Shown: piece by piece, positions 1,792-64,000 of the stretch | How positions within the stretch are numbered: the stretch's first letter is position 1 | How the letters are laid out: each line of letters starts with the position of its first letter | DNA from: Candidatus Undinarchaeota archaeon | GTDB lineage: Archaea; SpSt-1190; DYHY01; CAZGQF01 | Assembly (NCBI GenBank): GCA_964527545.1 | Contig: CAZGQF010000002.1 | Coordinates: forward strand, 23,452 to 87,451 | DNA length: 64,000 nt | Reading direction: 5' to 3' | Position numbers and translations under genes: made by a program | The notes under the pieces: model-generated | Database searches by the model: none | What the model was told of the DNA's origin: nothing | The model's input: the letters and a program-made list of their open reading frames with translations, nothing else

Positions 1792-1880
1792 TGGGCCCGG
1801 AGGGATTCGAACCCCCGATCCACTGGTTTCTTCCGCAAAGACCGAAGCCAGTTGCCCTATCCAGACTAGGCCACGGGCCC
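1792..1880 (-). tRNA. tRNA-Arg (anticodon UCG) with ~14-nt intron after position 37
   Basis: Manual fold of reverse complement: acceptor GGGCCCG/CGGGCCC, D arm GCCT-AGTCTGGATA-GGGC, anticodon stem ACTGG/CCAGT enclosing 21 nt (7-nt loop CUUCGGA plus 14-nt insert), T arm GGGGG-TTCGAAT-CCCTC, discriminator A. Confidence 0.65.
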
Positions 1881-10836: not shown

Positions 10837-11088
10837 CTATTCATCATAGTTCTTTTTTCTCTCCTGCTCGTCCCCTCTTCCTAAAAGGGCGTTGAAGAAG
10901 GAGTCAGGGAGTTCGGGAGGTTTCTCTTCCGGGTTTTTCTGGTAGAACTCTTCGAAGGCCTCATCCTGGAATCTCTTCAGCGCCTTGTCCAGTCTCTCGA
11001 CCTCGTTCCAGTCCCTCTTTTTGAGAGCATCTTGGTAGCTCTCCGACAGCTCGCTGTACCGCCGCCCGCTGTAGTCCTTCTCTTCCAT
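10837..11088 (-). CDS. Hypothetical acidic protein
   Basis: 83-aa ORF, charged helical composition; no motif recognised. Confidence 0.35.
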   Translation of the reverse strand: MEEKDYSGRRYSELSESYQDALKKRDWNEVERLDKALKRFQDEAFEEFYQKNPEEKPPELPDSFFNALLGRGDEQERKKNYDE

Positions 11089-11107: not shown

Positions 11108-11476
11108 TCAGTTCTGGAGTTCTTTGTAGAGTTCCTCTCTCACGGCATCGACTCCGAAGTAGCCCTGCTCCCCCATGAAGAGTTCCAGGTCTTCGACCTT
11201 CTTGAAGTATCTCTCTGCCCAATCTTCTCTGCCGTCTTGGAGTTCTTTCTCTGCCTCTCCCAGAAGGCCCTCAGCTGTCCCTATCACGACGCTGTTGAAG
11301 GTTTTTTTGGCGCCCTCAGGGACCTTGAGCCTCCCGCGGATCTCCTCCACGCGAAGGCCCTTCATCTTCTGCAGCTTCCAGTACGCCTTGTTGAATTTGC
11401 CTTCCCTCTCCGCGCGGAAAGCAGGTGCCAGGAGTCTGGTGTACTGTTCTTGTGTCGCGTTTTCATCCACGTCCAT
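11108..11476 (-). CDS. Hypothetical protein
   Basis: 122-aa ORF directly upstream of the preceding one on the same strand. Confidence 0.4.
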   Translation of the reverse strand: MDVDENATQEQYTRLLAPAFRAEREGKFNKAYWKLQKMKGLRVEEIRGRLKVPEGAKKTFNSVVIGTAEGLLGEAEKELQDGREDWAERYFKKVEDLELFMGEQGYFGVDAVREELYKELQN

Positions 11477-11577
11477 AGTTAGTCATTATACAGTAGTGAC
11501 TTAAATAGCTTACGGTCCAGATTATGGATTAAAGTCCCTTTTCTGGGCCCTAAAGCGCTCGAGCCAGGGCTGGGAAG

Positions 11578-11613
11578 TCCATGGACTGGAGGGATTCAAA
11601 GCGGTCAATGTCC
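11578..11613. repeat. Truncated copy of tRNA-Ala 3' end plus GGTCAATGTCC module
   Basis: CCATGGACTGGAGGG is identical to 11839-11853 in the tRNA-Ala gene; followed by a degenerate T-arm and GGTCAATGTCC, which recurs at 63507-63517. Confidence 0.6.
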
Positions 11614-11716
11614 TGTGACTCCGTCACAGGCTGGAAGGAAACTTCGTTTCCGACATCCCCGCGAGCCTGTGCTGTCTTTGATAGCACCAAGAAATTTTCT
11701 TTGGGGTTGGACAACC

Positions 11717-11743
11717 CCCTAATTGAGCGGAGCTCAATTGGGC
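11717..11743. repeat. Quasi-palindromic motif CCCTAATTGAGCGGAGCTCAATTGGG (copy 1)
   Basis: Inverted repeat ATTGAGC/GCTCAAT; near-identical copy in opposite orientation at 63682-63706; preceded by palindrome GGGGTTGGACAACCCC. Confidence 0.6.
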
Positions 11744-11841
11744 GCAATCGAGCTATATTGGAAACATTGTTTCCTACTATCGTACGAAGCTCTGCTTCGT
11801 AGATGCTCGATTAGCGTTTCTTTGGAAAAGAAAGGGGGCCA

Positions 11842-11915
11842 TGGACTGGAGGGGATTTGAACCCCTGGCCGCCTCGATGCGAACGAGGCGCTCTACCAGA
11901 CTGAGCTACCAGCCC
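11842..11915 (-). tRNA. tRNA-Ala (anticodon CGC)
   Basis: Manual fold: acceptor GGGCTGG with G3:U70, D arm GCTC-AGTCTGGTA-GAGC, anticodon arm CCTCG-UUCGCAU-CGAGG, T arm AGGGG-TTCAAAT-CCCCT, discriminator A; 74 nt. Confidence 0.85.
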
Positions 11916-11994
11916 GTGTGTTTACCTATGCGAGCGCCGTTGGCGAAGCCAACGAGCGCCCCAGCGCCGGCCGATGGGTTGCGGCCGCGTCTGT

Positions 11995-12015
11995 ACCAGA
12001 CTGAGCTACCAGCCC
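11995..12015. repeat. Duplicated 5' segment of tRNA-Ala (21 nt) without a matching 3' half
   Basis: ACCAGACTGAGCTACCAGCCC at 11995-12015 is identical to 11895-11915 (tRNA positions 1-21); downstream sequence is GC-rich and lacks a CCAGCCC/CCAGTCC acceptor strand. Confidence 0.55.
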
Positions 12016-12047
12016 TTGCAGAAATCTCGGCCACGTCGCTTAAAAAA

Positions 12048-13004
12048 CTATAGAGAAGTCGGTGGTTTCAGCCATCTCTCAAGCCAGAGATAGGCGTTCT
12101 CCCAGCTTTTCCTGTCGAAGTGGTGGCCGCCCTCGAACCAGGCAAGCTCGAGGCTGTCTTCCGCGCCTTCCTTTACGTAGGACTCCTCCAGCACTCCGTA
12201 GGCCCTCTCCACAGCCTTCTTGGGGAAGTTCTCGTCCTGCACGGCGGAGACCATCATCATCGGCCTGGGCGCGACCAGGGAGGCCACCTCTGGCAGGTCC
12301 GTTCTTTCGAGCAGGCCTGGGATGTAGGGGAGGAAGCAGTGGTAGACCCGCGTCTCCAGTATCTCTGGAAAGGAGCCCATGGCACAGCTGGCAACGACCG
12401 CCCCTAATCTCTCGTCCAGGGCCGCCGCCATCCAAGCCTGCATCCCGCCGAGCGAGTGGCCGGCCGCGCCTATGCCCTTGACGAACGACAGGGAGGAGAG
12501 GTAGTCCGCACATGAGATGACGTCCTCGACCATAGTCTTGGCGATGCAGGAGCCGTGGAGCAGCGCTCTTGTCGCCTCGAACCTCTCGTCCCCGCCAGGC
12601 AGCCTCTCCTCGCTCGGCGTCACGTTGGGGTCGTGCCTCTCCTCGAAGCAGATGGAGTCGGGCGCGAGTACAGCAAAACCTCGCCGGGCGAGCTCCCTGC
12701 CGAAAGGGATGGAACCGTTCTCTGCGTTGTAGTCTCTCCCGTCCACGGGCAGCCCCATCACCTCGCTCTTCCCGACTTCGTACTGGAGGTCTGCCTGGTG
12801 GAGAGCGATGACAGCCGGCCAGGGCCCCTCCCCCTCCGGAAGGGCGAGGTAGGCGGGGATCTCCCTGTCGGTCTTCAGAAGGAGCTTCTTCAGAGTGAAC
12901 CCTTCCTCGTCTCTCTCCTCGCCCTCCTCGACGGAGAGCTTCTTGTTCCTTCTCAGGCCGCCCATCGCCTTCTCGAGGAAATGTGTCAGCTCTTCTCTCT
13001 CCAT
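12048..13004 (-). CDS. Alpha/beta-hydrolase (dienelactone hydrolase/esterase-like)
   Basis: Nucleophile elbow GHSLGG, C-terminal His; start set at ATG 13004, one nt after the upstream gene stop. Confidence 0.6.
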   Translation of the reverse strand: MEREELTHFLEKAMGGLRRNKKLSVEEGEERDEEGFTLKKLLLKTDREIPAYLALPEGEGPWPAVIALHQADLQYEVGKSEVMGLPVDGRDYNAENGSIPFGRELARRGFAVLAPDSICFEERHDPNVTPSEERLPGGDERFEATRALLHGSCIAKTMVEDVISCADYLSSLSFVKGIGAAGHSLGGMQAWMAAALDERLGAVVASCAMGSFPEILETRVYHCFLPYIPGLLERTDLPEVASLVAPRPMMMVSAVQDENFPKKAVERAYGVLEESYVKEGAEDSLELAWFEGGHHFDRKSWENAYLWLERWLKPPTSL

Positions 13005-13005
13005 T

Positions 13006-14472
13006 TCACACCTCCTCCAGTTCGTAGATGAAAACATTTTCGTCGCCGTAGACTCTCTCAAGGCCTTCAAGCTCCTCGCCGCGGGCCGCCCTGAAGAGCA
13101 GAGTCTTCTCCGCCTTCTCTGTCGGCTCCCAGTCCTTTAGGTAGGGCGAGCTATCTCCGCTCGAGGCGAGGGAGATGGCGTAGAGGAACTTTCTGTCCTG
13201 CTGGGAGACGAGGAGGTGGGAGGCGCCAAGCTCTTTCATCGCTTTCGCAGTCTCCAGCCCTCCCTCCGCCAGCAGGGCGTCCGCCACTTTTCGCACCCTC
13301 TCTTCCGGGTCGCAGAACTCGCACTCGACCTCTCTGAGCTCCTCTTCGCTCATCGCCGCGTACTTGGCGACAGTCTTCAGCACTGCTCTCGAAGGGCCGT
13401 CGATGACGACCTCCCTGCCTGTCATGCCGTGGACCTGCTGGCCTTCATCCCACCAGCCCAGGAAGACAGCGTCGTCCGGCGCCTCGGCCGAGACCCACTT
13501 CAGTGCTGAGAAGAGCTCGTGGTTGACGGGAGCGCGAACTGCCACACCATCTCTCTCATAGGCGATCTCCTGCGTCTCAAGCATCTCCCTGGCCTCCTCG
13601 TCCTTTCTTTCCGTGCGGACTTCGAAGCCTTCTCCGTTTGAGGTTATCTCTACTTCGCCGTTGACCTCGTCGACGTAGACTGGCGCGTCGAACTTGGCGA
13701 GGTTCGCATAGGAGGCGATGGAGAAGAAGACTGCCTCGGGCGAGACGGCATCAAGGAACTCCGGGGAAGAGGCGTCGAGGAGGCCGTGGTGACCGGCCTT
13801 CAGGACGTCGGCGTCGAGCTCCTCGCCAGACGAGAGGAGGCCATCTTCGCACTGGAGGTTGCAGTCCCCTGTCAAGAGAGCAGAGAAGTCGCCGTAGGTC
13901 AGCTTGATGACCAATGAGTTGCGGTTGCCGTTGCCCTCCTCCTCTATCTCCTCCGGCCAGAGGACTCTCATCTCCACGGAGCTGTCCACCCGTATCTCGT
14001 CTCCTCTCTCAAGTTTTCCTTCAGGTTTCTCCCTCATCAGCTTTGCAATCTCGCTTCCCCCCACCACTCCCGCCTCCTCAATGTCGCCGTTGTGGTAGAA
14101 CTTTCTTACTGGAAAGTCCCGCTCGAAGAGGTGCAGGAGGCCCTGGAAGTGGTCGCCGTGCGGGTGTGTCAGCACCACAGCGTCGAGAGAGGCGACCCCC
14201 TTCTCAGCGAGGTGGCCCGTGATGTCGTTCTCACCGCCGTCTACCAGGATCCTCTTTCCATGAGGCGTCGTGATCAGGATCGACTCCCTGACGTCGAGTA
14301 GCGTGATGGTGAGGTTTCCGGCATCTTGGTTTTCCGCAGTTTCAAAACTGTTCTCCACCTCCGCCCCCGGCGACTCTTTCGTGATGCCCGTCTCTTCTGA
14401 TACCTCTATCTGCTCCTCGCCGACACAGCCTGCCGTGAGAATGGCGATCACGAGCAGGAGTTCCCATCTCAT
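13006..14472 (-). CDS. Secreted lipoprotein with metallo-beta-lactamase fold domain
   Basis: Signal peptide with lipobox-like LTAGC; MBL motif VLTHPHGDH and later GHHG; about 200-aa uncharacterised C-terminal region. Confidence 0.6.
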   Translation of the reverse strand: MRWELLLVIAILTAGCVGEEQIEVSEETGITKESPGAEVENSFETAENQDAGNLTITLLDVRESILITTPHGKRILVDGGENDITGHLAEKGVASLDAVVLTHPHGDHFQGLLHLFERDFPVRKFYHNGDIEEAGVVGGSEIAKLMREKPEGKLERGDEIRVDSSVEMRVLWPEEIEEEGNGNRNSLVIKLTYGDFSALLTGDCNLQCEDGLLSSGEELDADVLKAGHHGLLDASSPEFLDAVSPEAVFFSIASYANLAKFDAPVYVDEVNGEVEITSNGEGFEVRTERKDEEAREMLETQEIAYERDGVAVRAPVNHELFSALKWVSAEAPDDAVFLGWWDEGQQVHGMTGREVVIDGPSRAVLKTVAKYAAMSEEELREVECEFCDPEERVRKVADALLAEGGLETAKAMKELGASHLLVSQQDRKFLYAISLASSGDSSPYLKDWEPTEKAEKTLLFRAARGEELEGLERVYGDENVFIYELEEV

Positions 14473-63472: not shown

Positions 63473-63495
63473 TGAAAACAGGAGCGCCGGGGATT
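63473..63495. repeat. Direct repeat 1 of tRNA-Ser 3' end plus trailer (23 nt identical to 63734-63756)
   Basis: TTGAAAACAGGAGCGCCGGGGAT occurs at 63473 and again overlapping the tRNA-Ser 3' end; followed by GGTCAATGTCC, shared with the tRNA-Ala locus. Confidence 0.7.
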
Positions 63496-63606
63496 GGATT
63501 CGCAGAGGTCAATGTCCCCTTCACAGCCTATCCTATCTTCGCTTCGCTCGATAGGAATCGATCCAATGGAGTTTCTTTCCTCTGCGGAGAGGGCCATATT
63601 AGGAAA

Positions 63607-63623
63607 GGAGCGCCGGGGATGGG
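63607..63623. repeat. Direct repeat 2 of tRNA-Ser 3' end (17 nt identical to 63742-63758)
   Basis: GGAGCGCCGGGGATGGG identical to the acceptor/T-stem segment of tRNA-Ser. Confidence 0.65.
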
Positions 63624-63681
63624 GTTCAAAGCGCCCTTTTTCTTTGAAAAGAAACCCAAATTGAACAGAGTTCAATTGGGC

Positions 63682-63706
63682 CCCATTGAGCTCCGCTCAA
63701 TTAGGG
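63682..63706. repeat. Quasi-palindromic motif CCCATTGAGCTCCGCTCAATTAGGG (copy 2)
   Basis: Reverse-complement match to 11717-11743; preceded by palindrome TTGAACAGAGTTCAA. Confidence 0.6.
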
Positions 63707-63745: not shown

Positions 63746-63833
63746 CGCCGGGGATGGGATTTGAACCCATGTGAGACTGACGCCTCACGAGCTTTCCAGG
63801 CTCGCGCCTTAGACCGGACTTGGCTACCCCGGC
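63746..63833 (-). tRNA. tRNA-Ser (anticodon GGA)
   Basis: Manual fold: acceptor GCCGGGG/CCCCGGC, anticodon arm CGAGC-CUGGAAA-GCUCG, long variable arm GTGAG...CTCAC, T arm ATGGG-TTCAAAT-CCCAT, discriminator G; 88 nt. Confidence 0.8.
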
Positions 63834-63911: not shown

Positions 63912-64000
63912 ATGCGCAAGCTCATAAGAAAGTATGCCTTGAGGAACGCATTCTTCTTCGACGGCAAGGCGGACGTCGGCGCCGTCCTCGGCAAGGTCTT
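63912..64000 (+). CDS. Glutamyl-tRNA synthetase-like protein, N-terminal fragment (runs off window end)
   Basis: MRKLIRKYALRNAFFFDGKADVGAVLGKV resembles the conserved N-terminus of archaeal GluRS as recalled; only 29 codons visible. Confidence 0.4.
   Translation, partial: MRKLIRKYALRNAFFFDGKADVGAVLGKV

Follow-up and report, generated by a model that had tools for sequence, protein, structure and literature searches.

The window analysed here, a stretch of 64,000 nucleotides of Candidatus Undinarchaeota archaeon contig CAZGQF010000002.1 (positions 23,452 to 87,451), contains three tRNA genes, all assigned to the minus strand by ARAGORN and Rfam, and at two of them, tRNA-Ala(CGC) and tRNA-Ser(GGA), partial copies of the ends of the tRNA gene lie in the flanking DNA. 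The tRNA-Ala gene (11842-11915) is intact, carries the G3:U70 pair, and scores 67.3 bits against Rfam family RF00005. An exact copy of its positions 1 to 22, which extend from the 5' strand of the acceptor stem to the end of the D-loop, is found upstream on the same strand and in the same orientation (11994-12015), with a gap of 78 bp between copy and gene; an earlier note on this DNA had reported the copy correctly but one nucleotide short, at 21 nt. The sequence GGGCTGGTAGCTCAGTCTGGTA occurs exactly twice in the window (11894-11915 and 11994-12015) and had no match in 100 shuffles even when up to three mismatches were permitted. Beyond the exact 22 nt the likeness fades over about 7 nt (extended alignment 11987-12018). 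The spacer between copy and gene (11916-11993, minus strand) is 78 nt of 69% G+C and holds a hairpin with a bulged T and a triloop (11935-11958). Downstream of the gene, a copy of the 3' end (11579-11596, minus strand) runs from the T-loop to 3 nt beyond the gene: CCATGGACTGGAGGG is present exactly at 11579-11593 and at 11839-11853, comprising 12 nt of the tRNA and 3 nt of flank, and with one gap permitted 18 of 19 positions match, into the 3' part of the T-loop. The distance from gene to copy is 248 bp rather than the 230 bp or so of the earlier note, which had the 15 exact nucleotides right.

A TATA-like sequence, TTTTTTAAG (12039-12047, minus strand), read from the sequence, immediately follows the stop codon of a hydrolase gene and lies 24-32 nt before the 5' copy. 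A similar motif, TTTTAAG, precedes the VTT gene both in the window and in contig L004 of a relative, and inspection found no motif like TTTTTTAAG before the intact tRNA-Ala gene. To judge by its letters and position, TTTTTTAAG could be a promoter-like motif for the 5' copy or, alternatively, the oligo-T terminator of the hydrolase gene.

The tRNA-Ser gene (63746-63833, minus strand; ARAGORN and Rfam) is also intact, and is divergent from the GluRS gene that starts at 63913. Two copies of its 3' end lie behind it on the same strand. The proximal copy, SerB (63606-63623), is exact over 16-18 nt (16 of 16 at 63608-63623) and is preceded by CGCTTTGAA, which is common to the 3' copy of tRNA-Ala and SerB; the flank of SerB is also related to the flank of the tRNA-Ser gene. 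The distal copy, SerA (63473-63500, or to 63517 with its arm), is preceded by GGACATTGACCTCTGCGAAT and matches the 3' end plus 12 nt of flank at 27 of 28 positions. A tag specific to the tRNA-Ser 3' end had five matches at edit distance 2, compared to 0.63 expected per 64 kb, and these include the gene, SerA, SerB and a stretch close to tRNA-Ala (11963-11978). The starting point of all four 3' fragments (that of tRNA-Ala, SerA, SerB and the Ser-like stretch at 11963-11978) is the 3' part of the T-loop; each keeps the orientation of the tRNA and goes on past the 3' end to take in 3-13 nt of flank. Two other Ser-like candidates (11555-11576 and 11652-11668) were too weak singly (6 of 500 shuffles as good; missed at edit distance 3) and were not used. 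Left of the SerB junction, TTTGAACCCC (63621-63630) is the exact reverse complement of the T-stem/loop sequence GGGGTTCAAA of tRNA-Ala (11856-11865), and the 3' copy of tRNA-Ala is preceded by CTTTGAA, the reverse complement of a T-loop; the junctions resemble T-loops written backward.

The two loci also have other modules in common, as the earlier note had claimed. The arm GGACATTGACCGCTTTGAAT adjoins the 3' copy of tRNA-Ala (11597-11613, minus strand), its last A and T overlapping the copy, and the pattern GGACATTGACC.CT..GAAT precedes both this copy and SerA (63498-63517) with 17 of 20 positions identical, a match equalled by 1 of 1000 shuffles. Just before the GGACATTGACC arm, both loci have CTGTGA.GG.G. 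The arm differs between the loci by an indel of 7 nt and is therefore not conserved as a reading frame. The non-coding interval between tRNA-Ala and its 3' copy (11594-11838, minus strand) is 245 bp of 48% G+C and its counterpart at tRNA-Ser is 243 bp of 49% G+C; the order of modules is collinear at both, namely a T-rich palindrome, paired family hairpins, a second T-rich palindrome, CTGTGA..GGACATTGACC..GAA and the tRNA copy, and one hairpin is identical at 30 of 32 positions. Global alignment of the two intervals is marginal (z = 2.0; 13 of 500 shuffles as good). The tRNA-Ser and tRNA-Ala genes themselves have an identical 13-nt block, GGGTTCAAATCCC, in the T-loop.

The 245-bp interval is rich in palindromes with triloops (11612-11630, 11637-11651, 11717-11742, 11760-11774, 11783-11801 and 11817-11833). 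The first of these, CCTGTGAC-TCC-GTCACAGG, and the palindromic motif at 11717-11742 are the two that had been pointed out before. The window has 41 perfect triloop palindromes whose arms are at least 6 nt long, and seven of them fall between 11500 and 12000, where 0.3 would be expected per 500 bp (Poisson probability approximately 2e-6, corrected for 128 bins). The total of 41 is about 2.3 times that of shuffles (about 18), with a roughly 20-fold concentration around tRNA-Ala, and the commonest triloops are GGA/TCC, GAA/TTC and AGA/TCT. One family of hairpins, 26 nt long with a bulged T and a triloop, has four members and is present at both the tRNA-Ala and the tRNA-Ser loci: PAL-b, CCCTAATTGAGC-GGA-GCTCAATTGGG (11717-11742, plus strand); its split relative PAL-a, whose arms (11805-11816 and 11743-11753) are parted by an insert of 51 nt; and PAL-d (63655-63680) and PAL-c (63681-63706), adjacent hairpins on the minus strand at tRNA-Ser. 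Out of 11 base pairs, three are altered on both arms and none on one arm alone, with 97.7% pairing. Several copies of one imperfect palindrome with symmetry retained through compensatory change are what characterizes repetitive extragenic palindromes (REP), and to our knowledge no RAYT-type transposase goes with this family. A model of the family matched the spacer hairpin upstream of tRNA-Ala (11935-11958) weakly (E = 0.32) and detected no other member in the window or on contigs L004 and L005 of relatives, and the family was not found in GTDB species genomes, IMG/VR, or plasmid and phage collections.

The neighborhood comparison that the earlier note had proposed could be made with one relative, represented by L004, whose coding DNA is about 67% identical to that of the window; the polarity of every difference from it is assumed. 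On L004 the order is GluRS, tRNA-Ser(GGA), 117 bp, tRNA-Ala(CGC), 153 bp, VTT, EamA and PfkB. The tRNA-Ser and tRNA-Ala genes are 94.6% and 94.7% identical, respectively, to those of the window, and the VTT protein is 81% identical. The window keeps these flanking genes but has 51,830 bp between tRNA-Ser and tRNA-Ala (11916-63745; 3543-4062 in L004). The 51.8-kb segment encodes DNA ligase, carbamoyl-phosphate synthase, aspartate carbamoyltransferase, a primase-like Toprim protein, HerA and a 2-oxoacid:ferredoxin oxidoreductase; with such core genes, uniform G+C content and no integrase, it was rejected as a genomic island. Neither the tRNA copies nor the modules are present at tRNA-Ala or tRNA-Ser in L004, where only 153 bp separate tRNA-Ala from VTT, and the inserts would therefore be lineage-specific additions, but the native flank of L004 partly matches the sequence that follows the intact tRNA-Ala gene of the window.

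The Ser-like stretch CCCATCGGCCGGCGCT (11963-11978, minus strand), 47 nt upstream of tRNA-Ala and at edit distance 2 from the tRNA-Ser 3' end, aligns moderately, together with its flank, with the 3' end and flank of tRNA-Ser in L004 (21 of 500 shuffles as good). It is probably what remained next to tRNA-Ala of the ancestral 3' end of tRNA-Ser once the two genes had been separated, although this is a post hoc comparison with a single relative. Because the tRNA pair is adjacent in L004 and a tRNA-Ser remnant appears to lie beside tRNA-Ala, the fragments also mark a chromosomal rearrangement: from one relative's gene order, the two tRNA loci would formerly have been one, and the fragments coincide with the 52-kb rearrangement. 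The lineage is thinly sampled, in that the VTT protein of the window has two close homologs among 5.8 billion proteins. The DNA ligase has about equal scores in comparison with ligases of Thermococcales and of Archaeoglobus, which places the host in neither Thermococcales nor Archaeoglobales proper.

The reading that we favor, with belief and doubt about evenly balanced because the gene that would define it (an integrase) is missing, is that the partial tRNA copies are attachment-site (att) duplications left at a recombination hotspot by mobile elements that have since been almost wholly lost. Site-specific integration into tRNA-Ala and tRNA-Ser would have been followed by loss of nearly all of the element DNA. 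On the 3' side, the crossover would have taken place in the T-loop, the intact gene retaining the block that extends from the T-loop to a few nucleotides past the 3' end, and the residual insert would end distally in a second copy of the block. Behind tRNA-Ala there is one such copy; behind tRNA-Ser there are two in tandem, which would imply two successive integrations. Precise excision of the unit is predicted to produce the junction ...CCAGTCCATGG/ACTTCCCAG. On the 5' side, a separate event may have acted on the first 22 nt of tRNA-Ala, with the displaced fragment staying by the original promoter. The intact gene, now 78 nt further downstream, is probably transcribed from that original promoter, with a leader of about 100 nt to be removed by RNase P; such a leader is probable because TTTTTTAAG precedes the 5' fragment and no such motif precedes the intact gene. 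The same sites apparently served the rearrangement by which the ancestral tRNA-Ser/tRNA-Ala pair was parted by 51.8 kb.

The direct repeats are exact, far beyond chance, and in each case one copy of part of a tRNA gene lies within an intact gene, which supports the interpretation as att sites. By analogy, the 3' copies, from the T-loop to past the end of the tRNA, have the geometry of tyrosine-integrase attachment sites, and a tyrosine integrase would be the candidate maker. Integrases of bacteria and archaea use three sublocations of tRNA genes (the anticodon loop, the T-loop and the 3' end), and the pTN3-like integrases integrate in the tRNA gene's 5' half and leave a displaced 5' fragment behind the original promoter (PMC8371274). 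Related integrases switch from one tRNA target to another while the neighboring sequence stays similar (PMC7253208), and tRNA gene fragments that derive from integration of elements are common in archaea (PMC9897764). An arm common to two tRNA genes is to be expected if related elements of different tRNA specificity left their att-proximal arm behind. The earlier note had proposed either two successive integration/excision events or a rearrangement; the att geometry agrees with the former and the adjacency of the two tRNA genes in L004 with the latter, but there is no integrase or element body in 64 kb and integration/excision is for this reason a deduction from geometry.

Several observations weigh against the decayed att sites. 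Searches of all main open reading frames (ORFs) and of those that cross the intervals with Pfam and PHROGs found no integrase, integrase fragment or element gene in 64 kb; the ORFs of the tRNA-Ala interval belong to no protein family, the plus-strand ORFs across the copies had no family match, and int(N)/int(C) halves, which in a suicidal-integrase scar would abut the two att copies antiparallel to the tRNA, were not detected. No matching element or attP was found in plasmids, phages, IMG/VR, GTDB genomes or JGI metagenomes: scans of GTDB and IMG/VR with the 22-nt palindrome, of JGI metagenomes with the arm motif, of IMG/VR with the att blocks of Ser and Ala, and of plasmids and phages with the whole locus returned chance matches in coding DNA or ordinary tRNA matches and nothing else; of this genome itself, the search covered the 64 kb of the window. 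Inserts of nearly equal length (245 and 243 bp) with the same order of modules at two loci are not expected from independent deletions and fit better with a small discrete element. The first 25 nt or so after the intact tRNA-Ala gene resemble the native flank in L004 (score 44; 0 of 500 shuffles as good), which counts against the reading because a simple model of integration puts element DNA there. The sites of pT26-2 or pTN3 are reported to measure 40-51 bp, more than the blocks of identity here (15-28 nt), and the comparison is with one relative only, with its assumed polarity.

The alternative that survives best, unlikely as we consider it, is that the hairpin-rich intervals of about 245 bp are themselves discrete non-autonomous mobile elements (miniature integrative or transposon-like) that were mobilized in trans and inserted at the T-loop or 3' end, the tRNA repeats being target duplications. 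The near equality of the inserts in length and composition, their collinear modules and the hairpin that is identical at 30 of 32 positions all suit such an element, and the exact duplication at tRNA-Ala is 15 bp, as is the block common to the three tRNA-Ser copies (15 nt), which is the size of casposon target duplications (PMC4779613). The duplications are nevertheless unequal, 15 nt at tRNA-Ala with pairwise identities of 18 and 22-28 nt among the tRNA-Ser copies, and the overall similarity of the intervals is the marginal one given above. No unit has terminal inverted repeats (TIRs): the ends of the tRNA-Ala unit give a score of 13, which 275 of 1000 shuffles reach, and the tRNA-Ser units show internal hairpins only. 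The perfect Ser-specific copy in the middle of the tRNA-Ser interval implies two insertions rather than one unit, and only two loci are known, the third tRNA gene of the window and both tRNA genes of L004 being without units. In a more specific form, to which we likewise give little credence, the gene-free, hairpin-packed intervals would be a tiny non-autonomous element, previously undescribed, of a barely sampled euryarchaeal lineage, which inserts in the T-loop and perhaps the D-loop, duplicates tRNA ends, builds up in tandem and provides breakpoints for rearrangement, and whose hairpins stay symmetrical through hairpin-templated copying. If small elements they are, they would be a miniature integrase-type counterpart, in archaeal mobile DNA, of miniature inverted-repeat transposable elements (MITEs); otherwise they are ordinary scars.

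A somewhat less likely account dispenses with mobile elements: errors of replication or repair (fork stalling, template switching at quasi-palindromes, microhomology-mediated duplication) would have arisen while tRNA-Ser and tRNA-Ala were neighbors, and modules would have been copied from one of their downstream regions to the other before the genes separated. The 117 bp between the two tRNA genes in L004 make it conceivable that the shared modules stem from old adjacency; the 13-nt T-loop block GGGTTCAAATCCC would be a substrate for unequal exchange; perfect triloop palindromes are crowded here (7 per 500 bp versus 0.3 expected), many of them perfectly symmetrical and unrelated in sequence; the mirrored changes in the arms of the hairpin family are those that hairpin-templated copying would give; the reverse-complement T-loop CTTTGAA stands beside junctions; and a Ser-like 3' fragment adjoins tRNA-Ala. 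The same tRNA coordinate is used at four junctions, however, always in direct orientation, which looks site-specific rather than error-driven, and so generic a mechanism should have affected the third tRNA gene of the window and those of L004, which show nothing alike. Simple tandem duplication is excluded for the 5' copy, since the sequence upstream of it is unrelated to the 78-nt spacer that precedes the gene.

It is improbable that the structures are functional, whether as an RNA co-transcribed with tRNA-Ala (leader or trailer) or as arrayed palindromes that bind protein and regulate the tRNA genes or their neighbors, with the tRNA-like ends serving as signals for processing or as decoys. 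The tRNA-sense strand of 11578-11841 has a fold with z = -6.06 in comparison to shuffles, the precursor that begins with the 5' copy and extends to the 3' end has z = -3.6, with the copy in the leader vying for the 3' strand of the acceptor stem, and compensatory changes keep the hairpins symmetrical. Palindromes fold equally on both strands, so that z = -6.06 is no proof of an RNA; the interval at tRNA-Ser (z = -1.6) is not significant, L004 has no counterpart and its region downstream of tRNA-Ala is unstructured (z = +0.9), no Rfam family was matched, and a T-rich stretch directly after tRNA-Ala likely stops transcription.

The earlier note, which had read the locus largely correctly, had also raised the idea of a split-tRNA half, which fails on position: split tRNAs of the Nanoarchaeum type have a 5' half up to position 37 and a 3' half from position 38, with G+C-rich tails that are complementary and with no intact gene besides, and here the 5' fragment ends at position 22, the 3' fragment is about 18 nt (positions approximately 58-76), and a complete tRNA-Ala gene lies between. 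Removal of 100 nt as a bulge-helix-bulge intron, which calls for two 3-nt bulges about a 4-bp helix where exon and intron meet, was rejected as well: its two borders would fall within direct repeats of identical sequence, AGCU (positions 9-12) alone is self-complementary, and the helices required outside it do not pair, as reasoned from the sequence; the minimum-energy fold of the tRNA-Ala precursor contains no bulge-helix-bulge motif. The hairpin CTGTG-ACGGAGT-CACAG places GGA at the anticodon position of a would-be pseudo-tRNA but has neither U33 nor a T-arm partner, and the likeness is treated as a coincidence.

That the copies are an artifact of assembly, the circumstance under which the earlier note would have given them up, is scarcely credible, since two Logan contigs (run SRR15425350) match the window base for base, each copy being inside a contig of an independent assembly, and since repeats of 15-22 nt are below the assembler's k; the point in its favor is that both contigs stop at the 3' end of tRNA-Ala, where the graph branches, but a break of this kind would be caused by a second tRNA-Ala isoacceptor with the same T-arm and acceptor. 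All modules as well as both copies are contained in these contigs, which argues against an artifact of one assembly, although the reads are possibly those behind the genome itself. The two contigs, L001 at its start and L003 at its end, break at approximately 11841-11846 of the window, and a further sequence in the sample, in the simplest case such an isoacceptor, probably has at least k nt of T-arm and acceptor in common with this gene.

Two small acidic genes behind the 3' copy of tRNA-Ala, for 83 amino acids (10837-11088, minus strand, isoelectric point 4.7) and 122 amino acids (11108-11476, minus strand, isoelectric point 5.1), exist as the earlier note had described them, but they are not leftover cargo of the interval as it had suggested, because they are distal to the 3' copy and thus outside the stretch bounded by repeats. 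A promoter-like sequence, AAGCTATTTAAGTCACTACTG (11491-11511, minus strand), precedes the longer gene and matches the promoter of VTT in L004 (alignment score 36; 4 of 500 shuffles as good); both genes are positioned between this VTT-type promoter and VTT, and L004 has neither. Both are ORFans that form singleton clusters at the 90% level and belong to no Pfam or PHROG family, and the 122-residue protein has no homologs among 5.8 billion proteins. The ORFan structure model is helical (pLDDT 66) with no significant fold match. Adjoining the 5' copy on the other side is the gene for an alpha/beta hydrolase (12048-13070; dienelactone hydrolase-like) with no homolog above 44% identity. Those homologs that have a name come from metagenome bins of Chloroflexota, and the gene may be a horizontal acquisition at the edge of the rearranged segment. 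The third tRNA gene (1792-1880, minus strand), which adjoins a gene start, contains an intron and is labeled 'tRNA-???' by ARAGORN; inspection by eye suggests tRNA-Arg(TCG), interrupted after position 37 by an intron of about 14 nt, and it has no fragment copies and no hairpin modules.

Fragments of tRNA genes of this kind are routinely misannotated, and they form the main fossil record that mobile elements have left in archaea. At least three or four recombination events, at two tRNA genes, are recorded here and are linked to a tRNA pair that is separated by 52 kb of core chromosome, and we know of no mobile element in the host lineage.

Among known systems, the REP and BIME palindromes of bacteria (PMC3184786) are similar in that short imperfect palindromes, in both orientations and with their symmetry kept, are clustered in intergenic DNA behind genes; they differ in that the family here has four members, all beside two tRNA genes, and most other palindromes of the cluster have no relation among themselves. 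For casposons with their solo-TIR remnants (PMC4779613, PMC5137440), the likeness is that they insert at tRNA 3' ends, occur in tandem with a common duplication and leave non-coding remnants; their target duplications are 14-15 bp, a length to which the exact 15 bp at tRNA-Ala conform, whereas the units described here have no TIRs, no Cas1 and no PolB, and duplications of unequal length. The SSV/pT26-2 type of 'suicidal' integrase (PMC7253208), whose own gene is split when it integrates, differs in that its reported sites start near the anticodon (approximately 51 bp) rather than in the T-loop, and in the int(N)/int(C) halves that went undetected in the window, but it too targets tRNA 3' ends, and related enzymes change their tRNA target while the flanking gene sequence remains similar; target switching of this type would explain the conserved arm beside different tRNA ends.

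For the 5' copy, the closest comparison is with integration in the 5' half of tRNA genes by the pTN3-like or TKV4-type family (Cossu et al. 2017, PMC5495485; PMC8371274). The host here is outside Thermococcales, the block, of 22 nt, stops in the D-loop instead of covering the full 5' half, and only 78 bp lie between the copies, with no integrase of the pTN3 family beside the site, where the neighbor is the alpha/beta hydrolase; alike are the duplicate of the 5' end upstream of an intact gene, with a fragment that has TTTTTTAAG, a predicted promoter, at -32 to -24 as a promoter-like motif that was kept, and the link to chromosomal rearrangements at tRNA genes. For the 3' copies it is with the attL/attR sites of tyrosine integrases (Williams 2002, as summarized in PMC8371274): the window has only 105-245 bp of palindrome-rich non-coding DNA between copies, with blocks of 15-28 nt, in place of an integrase and element body, but the direct repeat runs in the same way from the T-loop to just past the 3' end, with one copy in the intact gene and the other distal, tandem copies would follow from repeated integration, and the same arm lies by the site at two tRNA genes. 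The finding is real, and it is of a known kind rather than a new system.

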